A stretch of 64,000 bases of DNA from an uncultured Phycisphaerales bacterium (GTDB taxonomy: Bacteria > Planctomycetota > Phycisphaerae > Tepidisphaerales > Tepidisphaeraceae). The position numbers and the translations under genes were made by a program. Where the stretch lies: the NCBI GenBank assembly GCA_963758525.1, contig CAVWVQ010000001.1, forward strand, positions 32,001-96,000, written 5' to 3'. This document shows positions 13,413-28,394 of this stretch, one piece after another (the stretch's first letter is position 1; the number at the start of each line of letters is the position of its first letter). The notes under the pieces are model-generated. The model saw only the letters and a program-made list of their open reading frames with translations. It had not been told where the DNA came from and did not search any database.

Positions 13413-13554
13413 CCCCTTGCCCGCAAACGCAACCCGCGTATGATGCGAGGCTTGGGAATGAGCGGAGTCACCGACGGGAAAAGCGACGGTATTTCAGGTG
13501 ATCACCGGATCGTTGACGACACATGCGGCCGAGTACCCAAGCGGACTAAGGGGA
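13413..13554 (+). repeat. attL: putative tRNA promoter region + first 28 nt of tRNA-Cys
   Basis: 13425-13554 is identical to 28219-28348 (130 bp), extending to 13413/28207 with one mismatch. Confidence 0.93.
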
Positions 13555-13594
13555 ATCATCAAAAACACGGGGAAATAAGCAGACTTTTGCCGCC

Positions 13595-13614
13595 GGTGGA
13601 CCAAATGTGGACCA
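13595..13614 (+). promoter_or_regulatory. Putative integrase arm-type site
   Basis: ggtggaccaaatgtggacca; near-identical to 28125-28144. Confidence 0.6.
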
Positions 13615-13798
13615 CGGCTTACGGAAAGTCATCGCGGCATGGCCGACACTGCCGGCGAACGTCCGCGCGCAGATCCTTCGACTCGCGGAGCGGCAAGGGT
13701 AGAATCGAAACGAACATCGGGACGGCCGACTAATTACCGGCCAAGCGAATCGACGGCGGAGCCGTGTCCACCAGCACGACCCGCCGAAGATTCGGCCC

Positions 13799-14569
13799 GT
13801 GAAAGACTGGTGGAAAATGGAAGAATCGCAGGCACTTCGTTTTATCCGTGGACAAGGCAGTCAACCGGCACGATTTGAACGGCCCGACCGGAAGCCATCA
13901 CCGGAGGTTGAAGAATGCCGGAAGCTGCTCAGGGGCCCGGACATTCCCGTAATTCCTGCGGAGCTTCGTCGCATCGCCGACGTGCTCGACCGCGTTCCCG
14001 GGATGAACGAATTTGATGCGATGCGTACGACCGCGTCTGGCTGCCTGCATGACGCGATTAGAGCGGGCGCGTTCTCTGGAAGCCGCTGGCTCGATTTCCG
14101 TATCAAGCTCGCTGTCGGGCCCGGCATCACCACCGCGTACTTTCTGATCCTTGACAACTCGGAAGCGTGGGGCGTCACGATCGACAAAACGAAGCGATCA
14201 CCCCGTGCCGAAATTGAACTGGGTTGCCCGCTGATTGCCGCTCTGCTGAGGGAGCAAGCTCCTCAAAATTCCCTCCCGGCGCCAGCCCCAAAGGCGACTA
14301 CAGACGACGCCGCCGAGGCGGTGCGAATCATCGCCGATCGTGCAGCCACCAAGCCCAGGCTGCTCTGGCTTAAGTTCTATCTCGACCAAAATCCGAATGC
14401 GACGCTGCGCGACATTGAAACCGCCGCGAAGCTCTTACATCACTCCCTTCCAAGGGCGAGCACCAACGGCATTCTCGCGAGGGAAACATGGATAGGTCAT
14501 CAACCGCGCAGGCGATCGCACCGAGACACGTCAATTGAGCCAATCCTGCACCGTATCCCGTCCCGATAG
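13799..14569 (+). CDS. Hypothetical protein, possible C-terminal HTH regulator
   Basis: 256-aa ORF at the element's left end upstream of alpA; NPNATLRDIETAAK helix. Confidence 0.5.
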   Translation: MKDWWKMEESQALRFIRGQGSQPARFERPDRKPSPEVEECRKLLRGPDIPVIPAELRRIADVLDRVPGMNEFDAMRTTASGCLHDAIRAGAFSGSRWLDFRIKLAVGPGITTAYFLILDNSEAWGVTIDKTKRSPRAEIELGCPLIAALLREQAPQNSLPAPAPKATTDDAAEAVRIIADRAATKPRLLWLKFYLDQNPNATLRDIETAAKLLHHSLPRASTNGILARETWIGHQPRRRSHRDTSIEPILHRIPSR

Positions 14570-14753
14570 CTGTCCGAACTGTCCGGCCGCTGCATTTCTT
14601 CGGACAGCGCATTTTTCTTGCCACTAACTGACATCGCTTGAAAACAGGGTGATTCCGCGCGCCCGCTTGCACGCCGCTGTCCAGAAATCCGGACAACCCC
14701 TAGGAATGAAACGGTGCACCCACGGGGACAGGGTGCGCCATTCAGGAGGCAAT

Positions 14754-14975
14754 ATGACACACGAAAACGACACGCCGTCTCTGCTGCTGCGAGCTTCGAC
14801 CGTCGCCCGCATGTTGGAAATCGGGGAACGCACGCTCTGGCGTTGGGTCAGCGAGGGCGATTTCCCTTCACCGGACTACCGGAAAAACGAGCGGATTGTC
14901 CGCTGGAAGCGGGACACCGTAATGAACTGGGTGCACACCAACACCACCACGACGGCTGCTGCCATCACCGCTTAA
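14754..14975 (+). CDS. AlpA-family HTH regulator / excisionase
   Basis: LLRASTVARMLEIGERTLWRWVSEGDFPSP...IVRWKRDTVMNW; AGGAGG RBS. Confidence 0.85.
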   Translation: MTHENDTPSLLLRASTVARMLEIGERTLWRWVSEGDFPSPDYRKNERIVRWKRDTVMNWVHTNTTTTAAAITA

Positions 14976-15057
14976 ACCCACTTACCGCTGCGGTTGCCCG
15001 GCGCATAAAAACGCCGCGGCAGGGCTCGCAACCCGTACCGCGGCAGAAACTCGACTG

Positions 15058-16581
15058 ATGACCATCGTAGCAGAAGAAATCGAAGCCCCCAACGAAATCG
15101 AAGATTCGACGAGAATCGTCGAACAAGTTGATGTTGAGGCCATCCGCGAGACGCATGAGAACTGGCGGATCTACTGCCGGCCATCAGCGACAGACGCAGC
15201 GTTCATCGAATTGGTTACGAGCGTGATGGAAAGCGGCATCAACACGCCGCTGGAGCTGTCAGCCGATCGGTACATCATCAGCGGCCACCGGCGCATTTTT
15301 GCCGCCCGTGCTGCCAAACTCGCGACCGTTCCATGCCTCATCGACCACGACATCTACATCGGACCGATGGACGCCGCGGAGCGTATCGCGCTGCTGACGG
15401 AACGCAATCGCGGCGTCAGGGTCAAGTCAGACGCGGAGCAATACCTTGAAGCCGCTGCGAAGATCGATCCCGAGGCTGCGATCCGGGACGCACAGCAGCG
15501 CAAGGCACAACATTTCAACAAGGCAAAAGGTTCTGTCGAACTGGTGGAGACCCAGGGCAAGAGTCGTCGCACGGATCCATCAAAGGCGCGTAGCGAGCTA
15601 TTGAATGCGGTTCTGGAAGTTCTGGAGGAACTGCGCTGCAATGGTCATCTGCCGATCGGCTCCAGGCATATTCACTACAGATTGCTCCACAAGAAAGTGA
15701 GGACAAGCAGCTACGCCAACGGATTTATATACGGCACGCGCAAGGGTTCCGATGGGTTACTCAGCAAACTTCTGACCGACGCGCGCAGCAAAGGCATTGT
15801 CGATCCAGACGACATCGGCGACGACTCCCGCCCTACGCAGAAGATGGAACATGATGGCAATATTGCTCGATACGTCGGCAGGGAACTGGACGCGCTCTTC
15901 GGCAATTTTTTCTCCGACATCCATGCAGATCAACCGCATCACGTTGAACTGCTGATCGAGAAAAACACGGTCTACCCGCTGATCGCAAAGCACGTCGGAA
16001 ATAAATTCCGCGTGCCGCTCACGTCAATGCACGGCTACGGCAGCTTCCCCTCATCCCGCGACATTGCCGCCAGGTTCAAGGCGAGCGGCAAGGAAAAGTG
16101 CGTCGTGATTTATGTCTCCGACCTCGACCCTGAAGGCGTGAACATGCCAGCGGCGGTCAAGAAATACCTCCTCGAAGACTTCGGAGTGACCACCACCATT
16201 GTGCGGGCCGGCGTGACGATGGAACAGGTCAAGAGGTTCAAACTGCCGCCGGATGCCGACGTGAAGTTGTCGAGTACCCGCGCAAAAGGCTTTATTGCGA
16301 AGTACGGGCACCAATGCTGGGAACTCGACTCGATGCCCGCCGACATCCTCATCAGCGAAACCGCCGGCGCTGTGTCGAAGTTCTTAGACATCGACGCGTT
16401 CAACAGGGCATTCGATCGCGAACGAGAAGCTGATATCGAGCTGGCTAGGATGAAGGCAGCCGCGTCCGCGTTCGTTCGTGACCAGTTTCAGGAACAACTC
16501 GGCCAGGGGCGCAATGAACAAGCACCTCCAATATGCCGGCGGGTTCTTTGTAACACCGCTGAGCGGCGGCTTGCCATTTGA
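15058..16581 (+). CDS. ParB/Srx N-terminal domain fused to Topo VI-A/Spo11-like winged-helix + TOPRIM domain
   Basis: SVMESGINTPL...IISGHRR (ParB); SRHIHYRL, ELLIEK, YVSDLDPEG, WELDSM (Top6A-like). Confidence 0.75.
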   Translation: MTIVAEEIEAPNEIEDSTRIVEQVDVEAIRETHENWRIYCRPSATDAAFIELVTSVMESGINTPLELSADRYIISGHRRIFAARAAKLATVPCLIDHDIYIGPMDAAERIALLTERNRGVRVKSDAEQYLEAAAKIDPEAAIRDAQQRKAQHFNKAKGSVELVETQGKSRRTDPSKARSELLNAVLEVLEELRCNGHLPIGSRHIHYRLLHKKVRTSSYANGFIYGTRKGSDGLLSKLLTDARSKGIVDPDDIGDDSRPTQKMEHDGNIARYVGRELDALFGNFFSDIHADQPHHVELLIEKNTVYPLIAKHVGNKFRVPLTSMHGYGSFPSSRDIAARFKASGKEKCVVIYVSDLDPEGVNMPAAVKKYLLEDFGVTTTIVRAGVTMEQVKRFKLPPDADVKLSSTRAKGFIAKYGHQCWELDSMPADILISETAGAVSKFLDIDAFNRAFDREREADIELARMKAAASAFVRDQFQEQLGQGRNEQAPPICRRVLCNTAERRLAI

Positions 16582-17089
16582 TGAGGGGTTGCACTTCGCC
16601 CGCATCGAACTGCAGCGCGTTTCGGCATCGCTGGAACTGATCGGGAGTTGCTGGCAGGAACCGGTTGAAGCCGTGCGGATCTGCGCCGAAGAGGGCATCA
16701 ATTCATCTGCCTTTGACGACGACAGCCGGATTCTGTTTTTGGTTCTGGAGCTTGCCGCCAAATATCCAGACGCAGACCGACGCAGACTTGCGCGGCGGTG
16801 TCTCAGAGCAAATCACCATTGGGACGATGCGGCGCCGCCGATTGAATTCGGCCGGCTCGGCTGGTCTGACAAAACGCTCGCGGTCCTGGCCGAGAGCTGG
16901 TTTCACTCGCCGCTGTTGATCCGTCTCAACGCTCGAAACTTACTCCGGATTCTCGTTTCACGGCGCGATGCGGCTCACCACCTCCGTGAGGCCCGCCGCC
17001 TTCTCGCGGATCCCGCACATTCTGAAACCCACAAACGCCCCGTGCACGTCATCAACCGCCCGGCACAGAATCGGAGGCGATCCGCATGA
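16514..17089 (+). CDS. Hypothetical protein, weak DnaB N-terminal-like pattern
   Basis: Stop overlaps the next start (ATGA); ELIGSCWQEP...GINSSAFDDDSRILF. Confidence 0.45.
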   Translation: MNKHLQYAGGFFVTPLSGGLPFDEGLHFARIELQRVSASLELIGSCWQEPVEAVRICAEEGINSSAFDDDSRILFLVLELAAKYPDADRRRLARRCLRANHHWDDAAPPIEFGRLGWSDKTLAVLAESWFHSPLLIRLNARNLLRILVSRRDAAHHLREARRLLADPAHSETHKRPVHVINRPAQNRRRSA

Positions 17090-18876
17090 TTGCACTCGAA
17101 TACGACAACGAGATTCTCAACGGCGATTACCTCGCGACCGTGCGAGCTGTAGACACCGAGCGGGAGACAACCATCCACGAGCGGCGGATAAGCCTTCTGG
17201 ACGTGACACAGCGCCAGAACTTCGCGGACGCCGTGGCGAAAAGCATCGGCGATCGCGGCGCGGCGGAAGCAATCCAATTCAAGCTCCAGGAAAAAGCCAA
17301 CGAATGGAAGCCGGAAGGACACGGCACGCTGAAACTCACGACCCACGAGGAAGAGCCGGAAGCGCAGACAACCAGTGAGGGTTACAACCTCGTGCCCGGC
17401 GACTACACCGACGACGCCGGCAACAGCATCGAACGCGGCACCGACGACTTCACAGACGAAGTAATCGGCAATCTGCCCACCGGCACGATTTACTCGCGCG
17501 GCGGTGTTGCTGGTCAAGTTGAGGGCGAGCCAGGGGCGCGGTTCTTCTCTGATCTCGCACCGGACGGCATGCGCATCATCGTCGACTCCTGCATGAAGCT
17601 CGGGAAGTGGCGCACCCGTGGAGCCGGGAAGAACACCTATCAAGAAATCGGCTATGTGTCCTGCACGCGCGACCATGCCGGGCTCGTGTTATCTCGGGCA
17701 CCCGCCGATCGGCGCGTTCCGGTTCTCAAGTTCCTCACGTCGTACCCAATCTTTCTTCCCGGCTTTCGACTCTCAGAGCCGGGTTTTCACGATGGCGTTT
17801 TCTATGATGAGCCAGAAGCAATCCGGCAGATTAAAAGCGAGACCGATGCGGAAATTATCCGCGACACACTCTATGACCTCGTCATCGATTTCCCGTTCAA
17901 GGATGAAGCCAGCCGGCACAACTATTTCGGGCTGCTGATCACGCCGCTGATCCGTCCGGCGATCGCCGGCAACGTCCCCGGGCATCTCATCGGCGCGCCG
18001 CTGGAACGAACCGGCAAGACACTTCTCGCGGAGATTGTCGGCGCCATCGTTAACGGGATGCGGACGCCCGCCATGCAAATCTGTGAATCGAATGAGGAAA
18101 TGGACAAACGGCTCCTCGCGATTTTGCTTCGCGGGGAAACCCTGCTCCACCTGGATAATATCCGCGACACAATCGACCTCCCGTGTCTCGCCTCACTCTT
18201 GACCGCTAGCGTTTACAAAAGCCGTTTGCTCGGCGCGTCCAAGATGCTGGCGATTGAGAACAACGTGACGCTGATCGCCACGGGCAACAACCCCCGGGCA
18301 ACTGGTGAACTGGCAAAGCGGTTTGTTCCCATCACGCTCCAACCCACTACCGACGCGCCAGAACTGCGGAAGGATTTTCGACACCCCGATCTATGGGGTT
18401 ACGTCACGGAGCATCGCCGTCAAATCCTCGGCTGCCTGTTGGGCGCGGTGCGGATCTGGACCGACGCCGGCTCACCCCGCGGCGAACAACCGATGGGCGG
18501 GTTCGATGAGTGGGCAGCCGTCATCGGCGGCATCATGAAGGTGCTGGGTTTCGATGACTGGATGGGGAATGCCGGCGAATGGCGCGACTCGGCAGACTGG
18601 CGCCGATCCGACCTGCGGGCACTGGTGAAGTGCTGGCACGAACGGCACGGCAGCGGGCCCGTCACGGTTCGAGAAGCCCTGGCGATCGCGGAGGAGTTGG
18701 AACTATTCGGCGACGTGCTCATCGGCAAGGAAGGCAAGGCGCTGCTCACCAGCTTCGGAATGAAGGTGCTGGGGCGCAACACCGACACGCCGGTCGAAGG
18801 CTTCATCATCCGCAAGAACAGCCTCAGCCGTCCGGCAATCTACTCACTTCAGCCGCTGGAAGGGGTGACAGCGTGA
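17086..18876 (+). CDS. Replicative P-loop NTPase/helicase of phage primase-helicase type
   Basis: Walker A APLERTGKT, Walker B LLHLDNI, IATGNN, ELAKRF; iterons directly downstream. Confidence 0.75.
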   Translation: MIALEYDNEILNGDYLATVRAVDTERETTIHERRISLLDVTQRQNFADAVAKSIGDRGAAEAIQFKLQEKANEWKPEGHGTLKLTTHEEEPEAQTTSEGYNLVPGDYTDDAGNSIERGTDDFTDEVIGNLPTGTIYSRGGVAGQVEGEPGARFFSDLAPDGMRIIVDSCMKLGKWRTRGAGKNTYQEIGYVSCTRDHAGLVLSRAPADRRVPVLKFLTSYPIFLPGFRLSEPGFHDGVFYDEPEAIRQIKSETDAEIIRDTLYDLVIDFPFKDEASRHNYFGLLITPLIRPAIAGNVPGHLIGAPLERTGKTLLAEIVGAIVNGMRTPAMQICESNEEMDKRLLAILLRGETLLHLDNIRDTIDLPCLASLLTASVYKSRLLGASKMLAIENNVTLIATGNNPRATGELAKRFVPITLQPTTDAPELRKDFRHPDLWGYVTEHRRQILGCLLGAVRIWTDAGSPRGEQPMGGFDEWAAVIGGIMKVLGFDDWMGNAGEWRDSADWRRSDLRALVKCWHERHGSGPVTVREALAIAEELELFGDVLIGKEGKALLTSFGMKVLGRNTDTPVEGFIIRKNSLSRPAIYSLQPLEGVTA

Positions 18877-18880
18877 GAAA

Positions 18881-19070
18881 TTCAACACCTTTCAACACCT
18901 TTCAACACCTTTTCAAAAAAGGTGTTGAGCGCAACCAACGCGGTGATAAGAGTATACGCAACAACCAACACCTTCAACACCTTTCCAGTACCCCCCCACA
19001 TGCGCAGGCGCGCGCCTGAACCACGAACGGGTGGGCTGGAAAAGGTGTTAAAGGTGTCTGAAGGTGTTGA
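18881..19070. repeat. Iteron cluster, putative replication origin
   Basis: (ttcaacacct)x3 at 18881-18910, inverted aggtgttga at 18920, two more direct copies at 18966-18982, three inverted copies at 19043-19070. Confidence 0.8.
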
Positions 19071-19287
19071 TTTGGTCCTGCACATCACCATTCGGCCGCA
19101 CGAAATCCCGTGGGACGTTCGGCTTGCCGGCGAGATCAAGCGGATGGGGCGTCATCCGCTTATCCAGTTCGACGTGACGCATTACGCGATGGCTGGCACC
19201 GCCAACGCGTCCGCGAGCACCGCGCCCACGTCCGCATCGCACGAACCAGCAACGCGGGAAACAGGCTGCAAACGCAAAGGGAACCAA

Positions 19288-19517
19288 TGAGCGACGAACT
19301 GGCAACCATCACCATCTTTGAACCGCGCCCGGCGCTCCCGGACCTGCTGGCGGCACTGCGCAGCCGCGGATTGAAACTCAGAGCCGGCAGAGACATCGAC
19401 CAGCCGCACTACCGATGGCTGGACGTGATGCCAGCCGAGCGAGTCGGGAACTTGTGGCCGGCGATCGAAGCGAACTTCAGCGCGTTGCACACACTGGCAG
19501 AGCAGGTGGCACCATGA
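19288..19517 (+). CDS. Small hypothetical protein
   Basis: MSDELATITIFEPRP...; coupled to neighbouring ORFs. Confidence 0.4.
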
Positions 19518-19765
19518 GCACGGATGAACAGCAGACAGACAGCAGCAGTGCCGACGCCACGATTACGCGTTCGATGGGCGACTATGAGGTCGAAACTGCC
19601 AAGGTGGCACCCCCCCATGAGGTTCTTTTTTGGGGCCGGTGGCATCTCACGGGTTCGCCGCAGAGCCAGCGAATGACCACCTACGCCGCACTGTAGCAGG
19701 AATGAAAACACGACTTGACGGTACGACACAATGCCGAATGTTAAGATAGTTAAGGTGGGTATACT

Positions 19766-19805
19766 GGGTCCTCTCCGGGCCGCACGCCCTTTACGCGGGT
19801 TTGCG
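19766..19805 (+). other. Lambda-cos-like packaging site candidate
   Basis: GGGTCCTCTCCGG...CGCGGGTTT resembles lambda cosQ GGGTCCTTTCCGG and the CGCGGGTTT following cosN; lies just upstream of terS. Confidence 0.55.
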
Positions 19806-19863
19806 ACTGCCTTATTCCCAGAGATTGTTGCCTTGAACGTGATGAGTTAACGCTTTCCACGCA

Positions 19864-20391
19864 ATGAAAAAGCACCGCAAACAACCTCTGCCGCCGATCA
19901 CCAGCGCCCGGAAACTTGCCACGCTGATGCAGCGGAGTCACGTCGCCGTCAGCAAATGGCTGAAGCGTGCCGACTGGCCGTTCGGTACGCCGCCGTGGCT
20001 CGCGTCACAGCTTCCATCGATCGCAAAATGGTCTGATGAAACGCTGCGCCCATCAGTCGACGCCGGCAACGAAGACGCTGCCGCGGTTGATCTGCGCCGT
20101 CAGAAGCTACGGCAGGAAATCCGCCGTCTGAACGCCCAGGCTGACGCTTCTGAGTGCGCCCTTGCCAAAGAGCGTGGCTCCCTGATGGACGCGGGGGAAG
20201 TTGTCCGGGAGTGGCAGTCAATCACAGCGGCGCTGACGGCTGGCGTGGGCTCGCTGCCAGAGTCGGCTGCAATGCTGGCGCTGTCGCATGGGATGCCGCA
20301 CGAAGCGCGGGGAACGTTCAAGCAACAGGTACGGGAAGCGATCGACGCCATTCTGCAGCGGATGAACGCGCGGAGCGTGGTGGAACAATGA
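19864..20391 (+). CDS. Terminase small subunit (Nu1-like)
   Basis: N-terminal HTH (SARKLATLMQRSHVAVSKW), coiled coil RLNAQADASECALAKERGSLMDAGEVVREW...SLP. Confidence 0.72.
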   Translation: MKKHRKQPLPPITSARKLATLMQRSHVAVSKWLKRADWPFGTPPWLASQLPSIAKWSDETLRPSVDAGNEDAAAVDLRRQKLRQEIRRLNAQADASECALAKERGSLMDAGEVVREWQSITAALTAGVGSLPESAAMLALSHGMPHEARGTFKQQVREAIDAILQRMNARSVVEQ

Positions 20392-20477
20392 GGCTGTCTT
20401 AGGGCTGCCGGGTGTTCCGGCCGCCCCAGAGTTTTTGAAAACAAACAGCCGGCGAACTGTCGGCGGAAAGATGAGCG

Positions 20478-21014
20478 ATGAACGCATCAGAAACATGGCA
20501 GGATCACACGGAGGCGATCGCCGCCAATCGGTGCGCCGAAGCAGGTGCCAGATACCAAGGGTATCGCCAGCTCCTGCGCGAGATTGCATCCGATGGCAAC
20601 CTGTCCGACGGTCGCAAGGATCAGCTTGAAACCCTCGGTCAATCGCTCGCGATACCCGCCGATGAGATTCGCCGGGATCTGGCGACGATGACGGCCGCGG
20701 TGGCGCGGGAGAAACTCGCTGGCGGTTCCGACGCCGCAAGGGTCGCGGCGCAGGCGGCGCGTGAGGCGGTTGACGCTCACGTTACCGAAACCGATCGGCT
20801 GGTGTCCGCGCGGGAAGAGGAAACTTGGCATCTTCGGCATGATCGCAAGGTGACTGAGAACGAGCTTCGCGCCGCGCACGAGACGGCAGAGCGAGGCGTA
20901 TCGACGACAGCCGAAGCGCAGGCGGAGCTTGACCAACTCCGAATCGACCACGCGCAACTTTTGAATCATCCCACGACGGCCCCGGTGTCCCCGGCGGCTC
21001 ATATCGTGGCGTGA
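20478..21014 (+). CDS. Coiled-coil hypothetical protein (paralog A)
   Basis: 178-aa ORF; N-terminal half resembles the next ORF. Confidence 0.6.
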   Translation: MNASETWQDHTEAIAANRCAEAGARYQGYRQLLREIASDGNLSDGRKDQLETLGQSLAIPADEIRRDLATMTAAVAREKLAGGSDAARVAAQAAREAVDAHVTETDRLVSAREEETWHLRHDRKVTENELRAAHETAERGVSTTAEAQAELDQLRIDHAQLLNHPTTAPVSPAAHIVA

Positions 21015-21050
21015 CTATTAGCCGGCAAGTTCCGGCGGAAAGAAGAAGCA

Positions 21051-21728
21051 ATGGATTTTCTGAAACGACTGAAGGCGCGGCGAGCCGAAAAGCACGCCAC
21101 CGTGATTGAGAAATATGCGGCACTGATCCGACGAGCAGCGAATGGAGGCGAGCTCTCTGAAGCGGATACGGCGCGGCTTGATGCTCTTGCTGCGGAACTG
21201 AAGTTCGAACCGGAGCGCATTGAAGCGGACGTTGAGACGATCAAGCGCGTTGTAGCGCTCGAGGAAATCGCCCCGACGCTGGACGCAAAGAAGGTGGAAC
21301 ACAAGGCGTTGACCGTCGAACTTGGCGCGGCTCACGATGAACTGAAGACGATTCTCGCGAGGTTCAATGAGCGCATCACGTCGATCGAAGGACGCAAGGG
21401 ACAGGCGGGCGTTGCAATGACGGAGGCGAGCCAGGCGGTCGATGAACTTGCCGATCTGCGTTCCCGTCACTGGCGTTTGCTCGGCTTCCCCGAACCACCC
21501 AAACGCGAAGTGCCGGAAACGATCATCGATCCGATCAGCGATGGGCATCGGATCTACCAGGATTCCTACGCGGAGGTCTACGGCGGCGAGAGTAAGACGC
21601 CGAAGCCGCTCCCTGAAGTGATGGCGCCGTTGCCGGGTCCGCCAGCACGGGTTCACGTCACAGCATCGGCGGAAGAGACGGGCGTTAAAGGACGGATCCG
21701 CGGGACGATCAGTGTGCAGCCAGCTTAA
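21051..21728 (+). CDS. Coiled-coil hypothetical protein (paralog B)
   Basis: 225-aa ORF, heptad-rich. Confidence 0.65.
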   Translation: MDFLKRLKARRAEKHATVIEKYAALIRRAANGGELSEADTARLDALAAELKFEPERIEADVETIKRVVALEEIAPTLDAKKVEHKALTVELGAAHDELKTILARFNERITSIEGRKGQAGVAMTEASQAVDELADLRSRHWRLLGFPEPPKREVPETIIDPISDGHRIYQDSYAEVYGGESKTPKPLPEVMAPLPGPPARVHVTASAEETGVKGRIRGTISVQPA

Positions 21729-21740
21729 ACCCGCCGGCCA

Positions 21741-21960
21741 GGGTGTGCGGGGCCGCTCACGGCACCCCGCGTTACGAAGACCGTGAGCGGGTGAATCGTT
21801 TCGAGCCCGGCCAGCGGTGGATTTTCGTTCGTTTGTCCACCGCGAGAGACTTAACCCCGAAGGTCCGGCGGGATGCGAAAATCGACGACGGACCAACCCC
21901 GGCAGCGGTGAAAGCTGATGTCGGGATTTGAAAGAACAACTTAACCGCGGCGAATGCCGC
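21741..21960 (+). ncRNA. Candidate structured RNA / leader
   Basis: Five hairpins plus a 10-bp loop-to-downstream complementarity. Confidence 0.4.
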
Positions 21961-23072
21961 AAGGAATTTCAAATGACCAAGTCTTCAACACTTCAGCGGC
22001 GGCGCAGCATCCGGGTCGTCATCTCGGGCGACCTTGGGCAATTGCACCGCGCGACTTCGAGCCAATCCTTCAGAGTGTCTCAACCCTGAATTTCAACAAT
22101 GTGCCGGCACCGTCGGATGATGACGCCGCGCCTTATCGAGTGGTCAACGGACTGGCGATTGTCAGCGTCGGCGGCCCGTTGGTTTCGAGCGCCGATTGGA
22201 TCGATGAATACCTCGGCTTTGTGGGGCTCGACGACATTGAAAACGCCGTGAATCAGGCAGCAGGCGATCCGCGGATCAATGGCATCATGCTCGCGGTTGA
22301 CAGCCCGGGCGGCACGGTTGCAGGAACAAGCTCCGCTGCGGCCGCCATTGCCAGAGCAGCAAGGATCAAGCCTGTACACGGTTACTCGGCAAACTGCGCG
22401 TGCTCGGGCGCTTACTGGCTCGTCTCGCAATGCAACCGCTTCACTTCCGGCGATACTGCCGCCGTCGGCAACGTCGGAGTGTACGCGGTTCTCTGCGACA
22501 GCACCGGCATGCAGCAACAGCTTGGATTGCGGCTTAGTCTCGTCTCGACTGCGCCGTACAAAGGATTGGGCGCTGACGGCGCGGTGAGTGATGCGTTGAT
22601 CGCGGACGTGCAGCGCGAGATCGCCGATATCAATCAAGTCTTTCTTGCGGCGGTTTCCCGCGGGCGGTCGCTCGATTCTACGAAGGTTCTGTCGGTCGCC
22701 GACGGACGCGCCCATATCGGGCAGGCTGCGGTTTCGCTCGGACTGTCCGATGGCATCTGCAGCTTTGAGGACGCGTGCCTCGCGCTGCTGAAGGAAACAG
22801 GCGATGCCGGTTCACCGCTAGGGCCCGCGTCGGCGGCGCCGGTGAAGTTCGCTCCCGACGATGACGCCAGCGAACCCATGCCCGATATCGATCCGCTGTC
22901 TCGTCGATCGACACAATCACCCGAGGCTGCCGCGCTCGCGGAATGGCAGAGCGATCCGAGTCTCCGTGAGACGTGGAAGACGCAAGAGCGGTTCACGAAA
23001 TGGCGCACCAGCACTGCCGGGATTGCGCATGCCCAACGATCGCAGAGCCGCATCGCGGGGACGTTCCGATGA
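21954..23072 (+). CDS. S49 (SppA/lambda gpC-like) serine peptidase, putative prohead protease; start uncertain
   Basis: PWAI, VDSPGG, KPV, ACSGAYWL, VGNVGV, ADGRAHIG. Confidence 0.85.
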   Translation: MPQGISNDQVFNTSAAAQHPGRHLGRPWAIAPRDFEPILQSVSTLNFNNVPAPSDDDAAPYRVVNGLAIVSVGGPLVSSADWIDEYLGFVGLDDIENAVNQAAGDPRINGIMLAVDSPGGTVAGTSSAAAAIARAARIKPVHGYSANCACSGAYWLVSQCNRFTSGDTAAVGNVGVYAVLCDSTGMQQQLGLRLSLVSTAPYKGLGADGAVSDALIADVQREIADINQVFLAAVSRGRSLDSTKVLSVADGRAHIGQAAVSLGLSDGICSFEDACLALLKETGDAGSPLGPASAAPVKFAPDDDASEPMPDIDPLSRRSTQSPEAAALAEWQSDPSLRETWKTQERFTKWRTSTAGIAHAQRSQSRIAGTFR

Positions 23073-23407
23073 ACGCCACCTATCAAACGATGATCGACCT
23101 TGTTCTCTGCTATCGCAGCTCCGCGCAGATTGGCGCGATGGCACGGCTGAACTGCGGACAGATCTGCGCGATGTTCCGGCGCTCGCTGGCGGCTGGCGTC
23201 GGCGATGCACTCTCAGGACGTTTCTACCGCAAACACGCGGCGCTCGGACGGAGCTGCCGTGCCGACATCGCCGATCTGTTCAAGCGTGAAGCTGATCGGT
23301 GGGCGCTTGCGCTGAGTGGATATGCGAAGCGCCGCAACTTGTTCGGCGCGGTCGAAGATGACCTCCGCGTTGAATCTGAACGTCTAGGCGGAACCACCCG
23401 CATTTAA
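23069..23407 (+). CDS. Hypothetical protein
   Basis: ATGA coupling with the S49 stop; MNATYQTMIDLV... Confidence 0.45.
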   Translation: MNATYQTMIDLVLCYRSSAQIGAMARLNCGQICAMFRRSLAAGVGDALSGRFYRKHAALGRSCRADIADLFKREADRWALALSGYAKRRNLFGAVEDDLRVESERLGGTTRI

Positions 23408-23422
23408 TCGAGGTAACCAGCA

Positions 23423-24916
23423 ATGGCCAAAAGTGAACGACAAGTCGATATTGCAATCACGGCCCGCGACGAAGCGTCAAGCGTTTTCAAGAGCGTTGCG
23501 GCGCAGGCGCGTGAGTTCAATATGGAGGCGAAGCGCAGTGGCGAGGGCGCAGTCGAGCGGCTGCTAAAAGGCGGCGGTGCCCTTGGTCTCGCGACATTCG
23601 CGCTTGAGGGCGCGGGACATGCTGCCAAGGCGTTCAGCGAATCGCTTGCGGAAGTTGCCAACGGTGAGCGGTCTGTCCAGGAAGGCTTCGGACACATGCT
23701 GGAGGGGGTCTCCGGCGCGGTGCCCGTGCTGGGGACGTGGGTCACGGCGTTCCGTGAAATCGAAAATGCAGGATTCGACGCCGCAGCTTCCATCGCCGCC
23801 GCCTTCGGCGCAGACAAGGCAACGCAAGAGGCCATTGAAAGTTCCGACACCCTCAAGGCGCATTATGAGGCGCTCTCCAAGGCGATCTACGAAGGCGAAA
23901 AGCTGGCGATGGCGGGCAAGGCAAAAGCCACGATCGCCGGATTGACGGGCATAGAGAGAGAGCGGGCCGAGGCCAACAAGGCATACCAAGAGGAGCTCGA
24001 CCATATCGAGCAGCTGCGCAAAGAAAAAGAGAAGGGGTTGGACGCCGACGGGAAACGCGCCGCCGACAAAGGATTCAATCAGGCGCGTATCGAAGCTGAG
24101 AACGCGCTCAATCAGAAGCTCGCCGAACTATCCCGCGAGGCGGCAGACCAAAAGGAAGAAAACCAACTCAAGCACCTCGAGCGCGTCAAGTCCCAAGAAG
24201 ACTTGGCCGACGAAGTTCGGCTTCGTGAACGCGGCCGCGATCTTGAGGCTGATCTGGTCGCATTGACGGCGGCGCATGAAAAGGAGCTCGCGGAAATTGA
24301 CCGGCTGCATCAGAAACAAAAACTCAGTGACCAACAGGCAAAAGAGGAGCGTGCCGCTGCTGATGAAGCGTTCGAGGCGCGATCCGGCGAGGCACGGGAG
24401 AAGGATGCCGCGGCCAAGCTCGAACGGAACGATTCGATCAATCAGACGCTCAACGCCGCCAAGCTCGCTGCGCTGAAGGAACAGGCCGCGATGGGCGATC
24501 AGGGGGCAGCCGCGGAGGCCAGGAAGTGGGAAATCTCCCTGAAGTACACCGCCGAAAAAGAGAAGCTCATCCGACTCCTGCGCGATGAGAAGGGGTTGAC
24601 TGATGCCCAGCACGCGGCGGCAATTCAGGCGCTGGGGGATCTTGAGAAAGCCAGAAACAAGGAACTGGAAAGCAGCAAAGTTGAACCGCAGGAGAACCGC
24701 AAGGCGGCCCTCGAGGAATCATCACAACTGGCTGGCGTGTCGGCATCACAGGACATCGCAAAAGAACATCTTCAAACCGCGAAGGATTTACTTGACGAGG
24801 CCAAGAAGAATAACGACACGCTGACCCAGGCGGCCGCCGACATCGCAACGATGGTGGGATATCTGGACCCGAGCAACGCCACGTCGGCGAACAGCGTTTT
24901 TGGAGACAGCCAATGA
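23423..24916 (+). CDS. Tape-measure-like helical protein (497 aa)
   Basis: VDIAITARDEASSVFKSV N-terminus typical of tape measures; Ala/Gly-rich hydrophobic segment followed by a long coiled coil; GAGG RBS. Confidence 0.55.
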   Translation: MAKSERQVDIAITARDEASSVFKSVAAQAREFNMEAKRSGEGAVERLLKGGGALGLATFALEGAGHAAKAFSESLAEVANGERSVQEGFGHMLEGVSGAVPVLGTWVTAFREIENAGFDAAASIAAAFGADKATQEAIESSDTLKAHYEALSKAIYEGEKLAMAGKAKATIAGLTGIERERAEANKAYQEELDHIEQLRKEKEKGLDADGKRAADKGFNQARIEAENALNQKLAELSREAADQKEENQLKHLERVKSQEDLADEVRLRERGRDLEADLVALTAAHEKELAEIDRLHQKQKLSDQQAKEERAAADEAFEARSGEAREKDAAAKLERNDSINQTLNAAKLAALKEQAAMGDQGAAAEARKWEISLKYTAEKEKLIRLLRDEKGLTDAQHAAAIQALGDLEKARNKELESSKVEPQENRKAALEESSQLAGVSASQDIAKEHLQTAKDLLDEAKKNNDTLTQAAADIATMVGYLDPSNATSANSVFGDSQ

Positions 24917-25155
24917 CCGATCCACGCGTTATCGACATGATCGAGGCGACCCGGCGGAGCTTCATCGGGCTTGAGGAAAGCTACGCCAAGCACTCTGAAG
25001 TCATGGACCGGCATGTCGAGTACATCGGCGATCCGGATGTTTCGACGCGCGAGGACTGGAAAGCGCTCCTGCCAGAACTAGCGAATCTGCGTCGCCGGTT
25101 GGCGGTGTTTCACTCGGCGCTGGGACGGCTGGAAAAGCATATCAAGAGGGAGTGA
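24913..25155 (+). CDS. Hypothetical protein
   Basis: ATGA-coupled 80-aa ORF. Confidence 0.5.
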   Translation: MTDPRVIDMIEATRRSFIGLEESYAKHSEVMDRHVEYIGDPDVSTREDWKALLPELANLRRRLAVFHSALGRLEKHIKRE

Positions 25156-25189
25156 GGCGCGCCGGTGCGGAACTATAGGAATTTAGTTC

Positions 25190-25231
25190 TTGACTATGAT
25201 TCGGTACGCCTCTATATTTATTCCATAGTCA
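25190..25231 (+). promoter_or_regulatory. Sigma70-like promoter with overlapping inverted operator
   Basis: TTGACT-17-TATATT (25190-25218); tgactatg (25191) and catagtca (25224) inverted repeat. Confidence 0.6.
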
Positions 25232-25248
25232 TCAACCAAGGAGCAGCC

Positions 25249-25440
25249 ATGACAACCGGGACGCGCCCGACCGCAACCCTGAAGAGAATGATTACCGCGG
25301 CAGCCGCCGATCGCGATGCCATGCTCCGCGAGGCCGGCGACTATGCCGGAAAGCAACGCTCGGATCGGTATTGTGAAGCTGATCGGCTCGACGGTGTTCT
25401 CAACGCACTGAAGGCGGAGCTGATCGAAGCGGAGGGGTGA
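25249..25440 (+). CDS. Small hypothetical protein
   Basis: AAGGAG RBS, promoter upstream. Confidence 0.55.
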   Translation: MTTGTRPTATLKRMITAAAADRDAMLREAGDYAGKQRSDRYCEADRLDGVLNALKAELIEAEG

Positions 25441-25527
25441 ATCGGGGGCGCCCGTGTCACAATTGACGAACCTCTGCGAAAAGTGGGCTCTCAGACTCCG
25501 CCTGCATAAACGCCACGGTAAACCTTT

Positions 25528-25719
25528 TCACAGCTTCCCCTTCGCCAGCTTTCCCTTCGGGCGCCCAGGCTTGCGGACACGCACGTCGGCAAGGCTTTTC
25601 TCTTCGATCATATAGACATTGCCGAACTTGGAGGCGCGAAGCCGGCCGGCGGTGATAAGGGCAATCACGCGGCGGCGGGTGACTTTGAGCTTCGCGGCGG
25701 CGGCGGTCGTGGTCAACAT
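25528..25719 (-). CDS. Excisionase-like HTH protein
   Basis: MLTTTAAAAKLKVTRRRVIALITAGRLRASKFGNVYMI...KPGRP. Confidence 0.8.
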   Translation of the reverse strand: MLTTTAAAAKLKVTRRRVIALITAGRLRASKFGNVYMIEEKSLADVRVRKPGRPKGKLAKGKL

Positions 25720-25877
25720 TGCCGCCAGAGTCTACAGACTGACAAGAAAATATCTATGCACCCTTGCGAACAGTTCCCCGCGTTGTATAGTTTCTCGTAG
25801 CTTGCCGAGTGGCGAGCATTCAAAGTGCCCCCGCGACGTGTCACCGTCCGGGGGCCGGTCAAAGCTTTTAAGGAGCA

Positions 25878-26339
25878 ATGACGATGGAAAATGTACTGCA
25901 TACCGCGCCGCGTTTGAATCTTGCGGGTGTTCCCAAACATGCCCGCACGATCATCCGCAAGGCACCGGCGACCTGGCACCGCTGGCTCGCGTTCCTGAAT
26001 GCCGCCGACGATCCCGACTTCGAGCTGGTAGCCGAAGAAGCGGCGCCCATGTTTGAACTGGTGGCAAAGCTGACACGGCTGGGCGTCCCGTTCGATGAAA
26101 GCTTCCTGCAGCGCGTCGCGGAACTGCGGGAGGAAATGAAGTGGACGGATGCCGACAGTGACGGCGATGTGAGTGTGGACGATGGGAAGGAAGAACCACC
26201 CGATGAGCGGTTCGGACCCTGCGACAACGACGATCCGGCTTGCCGGGAGGACCTGCAACCAACTATCCGCCGGGACTTTGACGGCACCACAAGCCAGCAC
26301 AAGCCTTTGCTCAGCGAATGGGCGGGGGTGCCGCGATGA
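25878..26339 (+). CDS. Hypothetical protein
   Basis: AAGGAG RBS; TTGCGA-16-TATAGT upstream (25764-25791). Confidence 0.55.
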   Translation: MTMENVLHTAPRLNLAGVPKHARTIIRKAPATWHRWLAFLNAADDPDFELVAEEAAPMFELVAKLTRLGVPFDESFLQRVAELREEMKWTDADSDGDVSVDDGKEEPPDERFGPCDNDDPACREDLQPTIRRDFDGTTSQHKPLLSEWAGVPR

Positions 26340-26896
26340 AAACCACCAATGATGAGAAATCGTTGCTCCTGCTCAAATCGCTCTACGATCTGACGGACGA
26401 TCAATTCCAGATGTTCCTTCTCGACCATCAAGTTTACGATCTGGACCCCGCCCACCGCCTCATCGTTCCGCTGAGAAACCGCGACGGGTCGAAGACGAAT
26501 TTCTTGACCCTCGCCGCGAGAAGGCTCAGCGCCTTCCGGACAGGGGAATACGTCGGTCGCGAAGGCCCCTTCTGGTGCGATGCTGAGGGCAAGTGGTCCG
26601 ACGTGTGGCTGAGCGACGAGCCGCCCGCCGTCGCGAAAGTTGGCATCCGTCGCAAGGGGTTTCCCGAGCCGGCGTGGGGACAAGTCACGTGGAACGAGTA
26701 TGCCCGCTGGAAGAAGGGGAAAGGCGGCGCCCGTATCTATACGCGGTTTTGGCGATTGATGCCGTCGCACATGCTCGCGGTTGCCGCGGAACGGAAGGCG
26801 TACAGCATCGCCTTCCCCGATCTGATGGTTGGACGGGCGCTCAAGGAAGAATCAGTAATTGCACCCGGCGAGCTTCGATTGGCGGCGGAAGTATAA
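26336..26896 (+). CDS. Bet/RecT-family single-strand annealing protein
   Basis: LDP, RTGEYVG, GPFWC..GKWSDVWL.DEPP..AKV, WNEY, FWRLMPSHMLAVAAERKA..IAFP. Confidence 0.85.
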   Translation: MKTTNDEKSLLLLKSLYDLTDDQFQMFLLDHQVYDLDPAHRLIVPLRNRDGSKTNFLTLAARRLSAFRTGEYVGREGPFWCDAEGKWSDVWLSDEPPAVAKVGIRRKGFPEPAWGQVTWNEYARWKKGKGGARIYTRFWRLMPSHMLAVAAERKAYSIAFPDLMVGRALKEESVIAPGELRLAAEV

Positions 26897-27004
26897 CTTC
26901 TGATCGGTTGTGGCAAGATTTCCACAACCGATTCTTTGATCGAAAACTGACACGGGCCGTCCGCTGGCTAACGCTGGCGGAGGCGATTGAAAGGAACGTG
27001 AACC

Positions 27005-28295
27005 ATGGCTGACGTATTCAAGCGAAAGAGCAGTACGGGCGAGGCGCTGAGCATTTACTACGGCAAGTTGAAGGTCGTGCCCGGGACGTGGAAGCGCGTC
27101 AGCCTGTACACCGACAAGGAATCGAGCCGCCGGCGACTGCGCGAATTGCAGACCGAAGCAGACCAGCGCCGCGCAGGTATTCTCACCCCCGATACCGACC
27201 GGCTGGCGTTGCCGATTACCACGCTGGCGGAGCAGTACGGCGAATCGTTGCGCACCCAGGGGCGCGACGGGGATCACCTGCGCATCGTGAAATGGATGAA
27301 CGAGCAGCTTATCGAGCTTGGCGGCTGGAAGTTCTACCGGGACATCACCCGCGATTCGATGGGGAAGATTCTCGCCACGCTGGAGGGGCGGGGCGCCACC
27401 GCATCGTACCGCAACAAGTATCTGGCGCGGTGAAAGCGCTGGTGAACTGGCTTCTGCCTGATGGCGCAGCGTCTCCGCTGGCCAAGGTGAAAAGGATCCG
27501 GGAGAAGGGCGCAAAAAGACACGCGATCGGCGAGCCGCGACGGCGGATGAGCTGGCAGCGCTGATCGCGCTGGACATGCCCGACGATCGACGCCTCGCGT
27601 ATGCCCTGGCGGCATTCAACGGGCTTCGCAGGAATGAAGCCGCGCGGCTCAAGTGGAAGAGCCTGGCACTCGCCGCGGTCATTCCGTTCCTGGCGGTTCG
27701 CAGGAAGCAGGGACAGACCGACGAGCCGGATTACATTCCGGTGCATCCCTACGTTGCGAAACTCCTGGCCGGGCGGTTGGCCATGCCAGCGGCGACGGTA
27801 TTGCCCAACGTCCCCGACGTGGCCACGCTGGAAAAGGAATGGACCAAGGCGGGCGTGGCGTTCGCTGATGAGAAGGGGCGCAGGCTCGACTATCACGCCC
27901 TTCGTCACACCTTCCAGACCACGTTGGACCGCACGGGCTGCAGCCGGGCAACGAAGAAGAAACTGATGAGGCACGCGAATGAGGACGTGACAGACGGATA
28001 TGCGCATGCCGAGCTTTCGGAAATGCTGGAGGCGATCCTGCGCGTGCCGTCGCCGATGGAATGGCAGACGTTGACCGCAGCGGCAACCGGCACCGATCCG
28101 GCGGATATCACAATCTTGCGGGTTGGTGGACCAAATATGGACCAAGCCGCGACCCTTGAGCGGCAACGAGCGGCAACAACCCAGACCGCCGATGGGTTGA
28201 TTTTGACCCCTTGCCCGGAAACGCAACCCGCGTATGATGCGAGGCTTGGGAATGAGCGGAGTCACCGACGGGAAAAGCGACGGTATTTCAGGTGA
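27005..28295 (+). CDS. Tyrosine integrase, split by two apparent frameshifts (~27430 and ~27530)
   Basis: GLRRNE, DYHALRHTF, LMRHA, TDGYAH catalytic residues; the 3' end runs into attR. Confidence 0.88.
28125..28144 (+). promoter_or_regulatory. Putative integrase arm-type site
   Basis: ggtggaccaaatatggacca; matches 13595-13614. Confidence 0.6.
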
Positions 28296-28348
28296 TCACC
28301 GGATCGTTGACGACACATGCGGCCGAGTACCCAAGCGGACTAAGGGGA
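28207..28348 (+). repeat. attR including putative promoter TTGCCC-16-TATGAT (28211-28238)
   Basis: Direct repeat of 13413-13554. Confidence 0.93.
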
Positions 28349-28394
28349 CGGATTGCAAATCCGTTATTCGTCGGTTCGAATCCGACCTCGGCCT
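28321..28394 (+). tRNA. tRNA-Cys(GCA)
   Basis: Acceptor ggccgag/ctcggcc, anticodon arm acgga-ttgcaaa-tccgt, T-arm gtcgg-ttcgaat-ccgac; CCA not encoded. Confidence 0.96.

Follow-up and report, generated by a model that had tools for sequence, protein, structure and literature searches.

What kind of mobile element occupies the 5' side of a tRNA-Cys gene in an uncultured Phycisphaerales bacterium, and how might it travel? The question is raised by an island in a 64,000-nucleotide stretch of contig CAVWVQ010000001.1 (the window, meaning this whole stretch). The island is probably a phage satellite: capsid, portal and large terminase (TerL) genes could not be recognised in it, and it is likely a parasite of lambda-like phages, whose heads as well as tails it is predicted to remodel. 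Judged from its sequence, our verdict is a putative new family resembling phage-inducible chromosomal islands (PICIs), with a tail module like that of the PICI-like elements (PLEs) of Vibrio cholerae. The features on which this reading depends are as follows.

13413..13554, plus strand: left attachment (att) repeat, made up of 114 nt from upstream of the tRNA and a duplicate of its first 28 nt
13595..13614, plus strand: putative arm-type integrase site pair, with a twin at 28125-28144
19766..19797, plus strand: packaging-site motif resembling cosQ, some 100 nt upstream of terS, the sole bipartite match in the element
19864..20391, plus strand: small terminase (TerS) or Rpp-like protein, 175 aa (phrog_57, 1.7e-9)
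20478..21014, plus strand: helical protein found across the family (the hallmark), copy 1, 178 aa
21051..21728, plus strand: hallmark, copy 2, 225 aa, a small helical head followed by an 86-residue helix
21954..23072, plus strand: S49 head protease (phrog_53, 4.9e-55), with Ser151 and Lys203 kept and a scaffold tail of 99 aa that keeps its terminal helix
23423..24916, plus strand: predicted tape measure protein, 497 aa
27005..28295, plus strand: tyrosine integrase (phrog_1) in three reading frames, with two 1-nt shifts
28207..28348, plus strand: right att repeat, the final 28 nt of which overlap tRNA-Cys
28321..28394, plus strand: tRNA-Cys(GCA), the integration target, intact

The two att repeats are 142 nt long and 99% identical, with 1 mismatch, and their spacing gives the island its 14,794 bp. 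Since the right copy reaches 28 nt into tRNA-Cys, we place the element on the 5' side of the tRNA. Arm-type repeats (GGACCA at 13598 and 13609, and at 28128 and 28139) lie just within each end, and the G+C content of 57-63% is that of the host. Of 20 genes called in the element, 19 are on the plus strand; the exception is a helix-turn-helix (HTH) gene at 25528-25719. The initial annotation had described an att-bounded unit of this length with nearly all genes on one strand, and had given their order from a possible regulator to the integrase; the repeats, the open reading frame (ORF) calls and the family matches agree with it on each point. A second genome of the same genus (G002) holds a different element at the same tRNA-Cys 5' site, with an integrase 64% identical, the hallmark gene and a 29-nt att. 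A tRNA-Cys or tRNA-Arg gene follows the integrase in 10 of the 12 loci of the integrase clade. No empty attB was found among five relatives; host genes precede tRNA-Cys in two of these, but the genes differ. The clade as a whole (the window att repeats and L207-L216) targets the 5' side, or D-arm, of tRNA-Cys and tRNA-Arg, and in the window the att identity reaches 114 nt upstream.

The packaging genes point to a helper type. Over the DNA-binding HTH, TerS is 37-40% identical to the TerS of two prophages of the host family (L053 and L025). The motif ahead of terS has two parts, the heptamer GG[GT][TA]C[CT]T and, after it, a GCGG-type block; the same heptamer occurs in the right end of lambda. 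Of 10 satellites, 9 have the motif 88-130 nt upstream of terS, as do 3 of 7 further rows (a fourth has it at -177). It lies at -100 and -71 in the two complete lambda-like prophages of the host family that were tested, and about 100 nt ahead of terS in 4 of 6 other terS loci, against a background of 1.4% per 61-nt band; some terS start codons used for these distances were set by eye. The cos-like site proposed earlier is shared by satellites and complete prophages, and a cos-rpp layout is described for E. coli PICIs (PMC9026076; PMC6739421). Three prophages of the host family (L053, L025, L021) carry terS, lambda-type TerL (phrog_15), lambda-type portal (phrog_21) and S49, and decoration and capsid (phrog_1005) genes were seen in L053 and L025. 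We regard such complete lambda-like prophages as the likely helper type. The earlier proposal of a lambda-like cos helper altered in head and tail is backed in its first half by these prophages, and the remodelling is predicted from the gene content discussed below.

Absence of capsid, portal and TerL genes had also been claimed, and PHROG and Pfam scans of the window agree. With 26 helper-phage proteins of the same lineage as queries, we found no remnant of TerL, portal, capsid, decoration, tube or chaperone genes in the window. For the capsid specifically there was no PHROG or Pfam match and no tblastn match with 7 helper capsids, and every window ORF of 280 aa or more has another assignment.

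The head protease suggested by the initial annotation is supported by its PHROG match, and its catalytic Ser151 and Lys203 are invariant in the S49 alignment. The stretch beyond the protease domain measures 99, 130 and 99 residues in the three satellite enzymes, against 290, 206, 205, 215, 258, 211 and 199 in seven phage enzymes. The enzymes of the window and L093 lack the scaffold middle and retain the terminal helix. The three satellite enzymes were placed at three points among phage enzymes, in a tree without starred support. CpmB, and probably Rcm too, makes heads smaller by competing with the scaffold of the helper (PMC12409344), and from the three cases we infer that a short-tailed satellite S49 may compete in a similar way.

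The 497-aa protein is read as a tape measure because its homologs occupy the tape-measure slot of siphophage tail operons, as the initial annotation had supposed. A profile built with two relatives at 52-64% (A8) matched the gene between the tail tube and chaperone genes and a baseplate-side gene in three viral contigs: L131 (808 aa, 1.3e-17), L133 (648 aa, 5e-13) and L129 (619 aa, 1.7e-5). The N-terminus matches a 472-aa gene in the tape-measure slot of L219, and the neighbours of the protein in the Atlas were viral hypothetical proteins, with tape-measure clusters the nearest named ones. In an unpublished genome (G004), a complete lambda-like prophage encodes a homolog of 505 aa (42% over 146 aa), a single case which suggests that a satellite tape measure need not be shorter than that of its helper. 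The baseplate-side gene is also present in five relatives (L092, L108, L123 and L189, and L094, which has it alone); its product folded poorly in these relatives (predicted local distance difference test score, pLDDT, 45), and weak baseplate matches were left unused. Scans of viral contigs with the tape-measure profile and with S49 gave no confirmed relative. Tape measures of satellites have been demonstrated for PLEs, where they are incorporated into particles, and predicted for some capsid-forming PICIs (cf-PICIs) (PMC12987554).

The constant gene of this modular family is the helical hallmark and not the protease. The two adjacent genes called paralogs by the initial annotation score 1e-29 (20478) and 3e-50 (21051) against a family profile built without them, although BLAST misses their relation; the duplication also occurs in L102 and L190. 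A structural model (pLDDT 85) has two short helices and one 86-residue helix. With a five-row profile the family comprised 271 clusters at 50% identity and was present in 21 of 141 genomes of the host family. A 143-row profile matched 50 of 401 genomes of the class, where some weak rows are possibly generic helices and weak matches aligning to the long helix alone may be false. In a phylum-wide sample of 401 genomes, the five-row profile retrieved the genome itself and one false match; this false match, the sole phylum-level one outside the class sample (G407, locus L109), was dropped as a TerB-like host gene. In a screened set of 29 phage or prophage loci and two satellite loci, the profile matched both satellites and none of the 29; small satellite-like elements are the only place where the family was seen. 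No Pfam or PHROG family was common to more than 2 of 143 members, a PDB sequence search returned generic coiled coils alone, and nothing reached E<=0.001 in fold searches (best Z 6.6). An Atlas lead to Psu (0.85) was not supported by profile comparison: hhalign gave a probability of 0.2-2% when the hallmark was set against Psu, against Sid and against a narrow Psu profile, and neither Psu nor Sid was among the fold-search matches. Because the hallmark is constant, lies beside terS and head genes and is present in minimal elements, we tentatively suggest that it could be the core interference factor, and then most likely an outer scaffold or assembly switch like Sid or TcaP.

Syntenic relatives, the search for which had been proposed, were found in many genera. 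A TerS search matched 12 of 301 genomes and led to three loci (L046, L047, L048) in which a homolog of the 225-aa hallmark comes after terS. Besides the window we read 45 hallmark loci (L046-L048, L090-L108, L024, L123, L175-L194, L201), which are the best-scoring or best-placed matches, some on short contigs. PHROG scans covered selections of ORFs (21; 125 of 176; 23; 37 of 134), and all ORFs or whole stretches were compared with the 26 helper proteins (L201 separately, by called ORFs). A tape measure was found in 17 of the 45 loci (10 by PHROG at E<=0.001, 7 by weaker PHROG matches or homology to other tape measures) and a TerS-like gene in about 14. Head proteases were present in four (two S49 enzymes, L093 and L024, and two of another class, L090 and L095), a capsid-like gene in three (L182, L188, L192) and TerL in one (L107); no portal was detected in any. 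Across 30 satellite stretches the helper structural proteins left no remnant except one head protease. TerS, hallmark and tape measure occur together in L046, L047, L092, L024, L123 and L181, and L024, from another family, has S49 in addition. Att-bounded relatives measure 12.8, 14.2, 14.5, 15.7 and about 16 kb, and a minimal att-bounded class of 5.8-8.2 kb (L175, L176, L179, L187, L191) consists of an integrase, a replication or HTH gene and the hallmark. MuA/MuB-type genes replace the integrase module in six loci (L099, L100, L177, L180, L185, and L190 with a MuB-like match only).

Several of these loci have peculiarities of their own. The capsid-like gene of L182, L188 and L192 (phrog_4523/133) stands alone, with no portal found, and L188 also has a tape measure. 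The six Mu-like loci mostly have a tape measure, with no capsid found, and are candidate transposable satellites. Where S49 would stand, the hallmark or head gene is often followed by a gene for an M41-like HEAGH metallopeptidase (L046:10021-10641, L108:8074-9279, L090:5037-6317; likewise L098, L181, L191 and L201). Large RHS-type proteins adjoin hallmark or terS genes in two elements (L102:10411-14460; L056:10050-18383).

Compared with known satellites, the element fits neither PICIs nor cf-PICIs, as had been proposed. Of the features that define a PICI, the window has an integrase, an AlpA regulator and a small terminase; for the replication module it has a helicase-like gene and iterons, with no primase domain detected; for the capsid morphogenesis gene it has no capsid homolog, with S49 and the hallmark as candidates for the role. 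PICIs by definition lack tail genes, which the SatelliteFinder PICI model forbids (PMC10085698), whereas the window has a tape measure. Gram-negative PICIs (EcCICFT073; Rpp) share with it an integrase, AlpA, a replication gene and a cosQ-bearing cos before a TerS-like gene (PMC6739421, PMC9026076), as well as a size of about 10-16 kb and a lambda-like helper, which in the window is predicted. Unlike them, it adds a tape measure, an S49 protease and the hallmark, has its integrase at the end adjoining the 5' side of the tRNA and resides in a Phycisphaerae host. Like cf-PICIs it has TerS, a head protease and the tape measure predicted in some of them (PMC12987554); those encode capsid, portal and TerL, none of which was found in the window. 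PLEs, which build chimeric tails with a tape measure, a tail assembly chaperone (TAC) and BhuB, are likewise capsid-less with their own tape measure (PMC12987554). They carry BhuB (PMC12987554), and five relatives keep the baseplate-side neighbour gene, which the window itself does not have. The helper of PLEs is the lytic myophage ICP1, whereas that of the window is predicted to be a temperate lambda-like siphophage, and the window family has a PICI-like or Mu-like chassis with its own TerS and protease and no TAC homolog found. For the short-tailed S49, and likewise for the capsid-like genes of L182, L188 and L192, the model is head shrinking by scaffold competition or capsid mimicry, as with SaPI CpmAB, Rcm and Ccm, P4 Sid and PLE TcaP (PMC12409344); the candidate in the window differs from these switchers in being a captured protease-scaffold with its scaffold cut short. 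No P4-like Delta, epsilon (Ash) or alpha primase-helicase family was present among the window ORFs. The gene set had also been singled out as unusual; the set is there, but protease plus tape measure is one variant of a modular family marked by the hallmark instead.

We found no paper on satellites of this planctomycete lineage in a literature search with supplements and subscription papers outside its scope, and head shrinking through a cut-short protease-scaffold was not found in the papers searched. Chimeric-tail piracy is demonstrated only for PLEs, and its selective step is not known (PMC12987554). The family offers many independent tape-measure captures in a distant phylum, and the hallmark is a marker gene with which satellites rejected or overlooked by PICI models can be found. 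Added to this are a named helper type and two new mechanisms that can be tested, truncated protease-scaffold head shrinking and an uncharacterised hallmark protein, and the Mu-like members suggest transposable satellites.

How would such an element live? Its AlpA/HTH genes and integrase suggest that it would excise and replicate upon infection by a lambda-like siphophage. Under the element TerS, the helper TerL would package the element DNA from the cos-like site that it carries; the tape measure of the element would be swapped into the helper tail, and the helper head would be shrunk. TerS probably acts like Rpp or SaPI TerS, and the tape measure rather likely builds chimeric tails as in PLEs. 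That the short-tailed protease-scaffold competes with that of the helper to give smaller heads, as CpmB does, is plausible at a strength just short of probable. More speculatively, the family could be a class-wide Phycisphaerae satellite lineage with a new helical hijacking protein, an integrase or Mu-transposase chassis and repeated capture of helper morphogenesis genes, of which this member might reprogram a temperate lambda-like phage in three respects at once: packaging (cos and TerS), head size (cut-short protease-scaffold) and tail core (own tape measure).

A number of observations weigh against this account. The tape measure of the window has no PHROG or Pfam match of its own, and helical proteins can match by composition. 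The window has no baseplate-hub gene and no chaperone homolog (the 112-aa ORF in the chaperone slot was unmatched by 4 helper chaperone queries), and no primase domain was detected in its ORFs by Pfam and PHROG family scans. The host genome, which is 91% complete, has no helper head or terminase genes beyond one weak phrog_2 match. Short tails also occur in a phage S49 (L146, 35 aa) and in lambda gpC (158 aa), both outliers; the L024 enzyme keeps the scaffold middle and is without the terminal helix; and S49 is present in only 2 of the 45 relatives. The hallmark matches no known capsid remodeller, of which Psu and Sid alone were compared directly, and none of the viral loci fetched contained it, a result limited to those loci. 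Finally, two frameshifts within 1.3 kb of integrase exceed the rate of the genome.

The integrase bears on whether this copy is alive. We found two 1-nt shifts (near 27433 and 27520), neither of them reported by the initial annotation. Both fall in short single-base runs, and frame changes affect 6 of 32 conserved (housekeeping) genes of the same assembly (G000). The G002 integrase, also from a few-contig assembly, lacks the first shift and has the second at the same A run; in a short-read relative (L220/L207) a 450-aa integrase frame is open across the place of the second shift, and 12 further matches have open frames of 446-521 aa. The nearest named integrase records, at 64 and 73%, are from metagenome-assembled genomes of Tepidisphaeraceae and Phycisphaerales, and point to a phycisphaeran planctomycete as the most likely host. 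The frameshifts are probably assembly errors. The alternative, that the family is a satellite family and this particular copy is grounded by a truly broken integrase, draws on the clustering of the two shifts in one gene above the assembly rate and on the absence of the first from G002; we consider it unlikely, though well worth keeping in mind, given the runs, the in-frame relatives, the frameshifted housekeeping genes and att copies that differ at only 1 of 142 nt. A programmed frameshift, raised since G002 shares the second shift, was set aside because the L220/L207 integrase is in frame. Separately, the 6 frame-changed conserved genes of 32 point to uncorrected indels in the G000 assembly.

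The captured genes could also be weapons. TerS, the short scaffold and the tape measure would then be dominant-negative decoys that poison helper assembly, and the element would move in ordinary helper particles with neither chimeric tails nor small heads. Tail-assembly interference is a described theme of defence, the cargo is patchy and swapped among relatives (S49, another protease class, a capsid-like gene, an M41-like peptidase), the window has no chaperone or hub, and the minimal 6-8 kb members have the integrase, a replication gene and the hallmark only. Packaging of the element itself, however, fits the conserved cos-like motif before terS and the att-bounded sizes clustered at 13-16 kb; the catalytic residues of S49 are kept, and PLE tape measures enter particles (PMC12987554). 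We hold the decoy explanation to be improbable next to a satellite that remodels its helper. That the island is a decayed lambda-like prophage, from which TerL, portal, capsid and tube were lost, is the least credible explanation, since although TerS, S49 and the tape measure are homologous to prophage genes in the same order, the integrase is frameshifted, the RecT gene is short and the other prophage of the host is itself rearranged without recognisable head genes, the genes abut without the pseudogene debris of terL, portal or capsid that the initial annotation had named as a sign of decay, the satellite stretches are likewise nearly free of helper remnants, the hallmark, absent from the 29 phage loci, takes the place of TerL and portal, and the layout is seen again across genera and families together with integrases, replication genes and tape measures of unrelated kinds, a recurrence that already contradicts decay.

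The remaining features of the satellite concern regulation, replication and accessory functions.

13799..14569, plus strand: 256-aa ORF, a likely regulator by position alone, with no family and no match among the fetched loci
14754..14975, plus strand: AlpA/excisionase-like HTH protein (HTH_17 1e-6, phrog_66 3e-8)
15058..16581, plus strand: fusion of ParB-N and a topoisomerase/TOPRIM-like part, 507 aa (phrog_6247 1.9e-35, ParB phrogs), with a homolog in relative L189
16514..17089, plus strand: pre-helicase ORF, kept in relatives L107 and L201
17086..18876, plus strand: replicative helicase-like P-loop protein, 596 aa (phrog_10537 9e-50, phrog_19930 9e-25)
18879..19073, no strand: iteron cluster, a likely origin, from repeat analysis
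19287..19696, plus strand: two small ORFs, 76 and 60 aa, no assignment
21729..21953, plus strand: non-coding spacer, weakly structured
23069..23407, plus strand: 112-aa ORF in the tail-chaperone slot, no homology found
24913..25440, plus strand: two small ORFs, 80 and 63 aa, no assignment
25528..25719, minus strand: excisionase-like HTH protein (HTH_17 8.5e-8, phrog_2907), in the same slot in L092 and L123
25878..26339, plus strand: 153-aa acidic ORF, with homologs in satellites L092, L108 and L123
26318..26896, plus strand: short RecT/Bet-like annealing protein (phrog_2780 2.2e-18, profile positions 51-212 of 369)

Pfam and PHROG matches agree with the families assigned earlier to alpA, ParB/TOPRIM, helicase, xis, bet and int. 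Iterons had been noted as well, and six copies of a 9-mer (4 direct, 2 inverted) lie after the helicase within 18882-19070. The structured leader proposed before the protease fared less well: the spacer is present, but its structure is marginal (folding z -1.94, with 7 of 200 shuffles equally good), and the spacer 21729-21953 had no Rfam match. A helicase search of viral contigs retrieved two ordinary phage contigs. The window helicase is 40% identical to that of the other prophage of the host, a 40-kb element at tRNA-Gln (G000:C3:4693012-4733000, L018-L020) with inverted blocks, tail-like genes and this related helicase, in which no terminase, portal or capsid was recognised.

The same host contig carries two further integrative elements, one linked to tRNA-Ser with a helicase and a polymerase-like gene (G000:C3:2616167-2627400, L027) and one linked to tRNA-Gly with AlpA and an integrase (G000:C3:1468000-1477830, L028). 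It also has a 15-tRNA array (G000:C3:3764011-3766477), a 5-tRNA array (3600074-3600529) and five tandem tRNA-Ser-like repeats (G000:C3:4444824-4445528).

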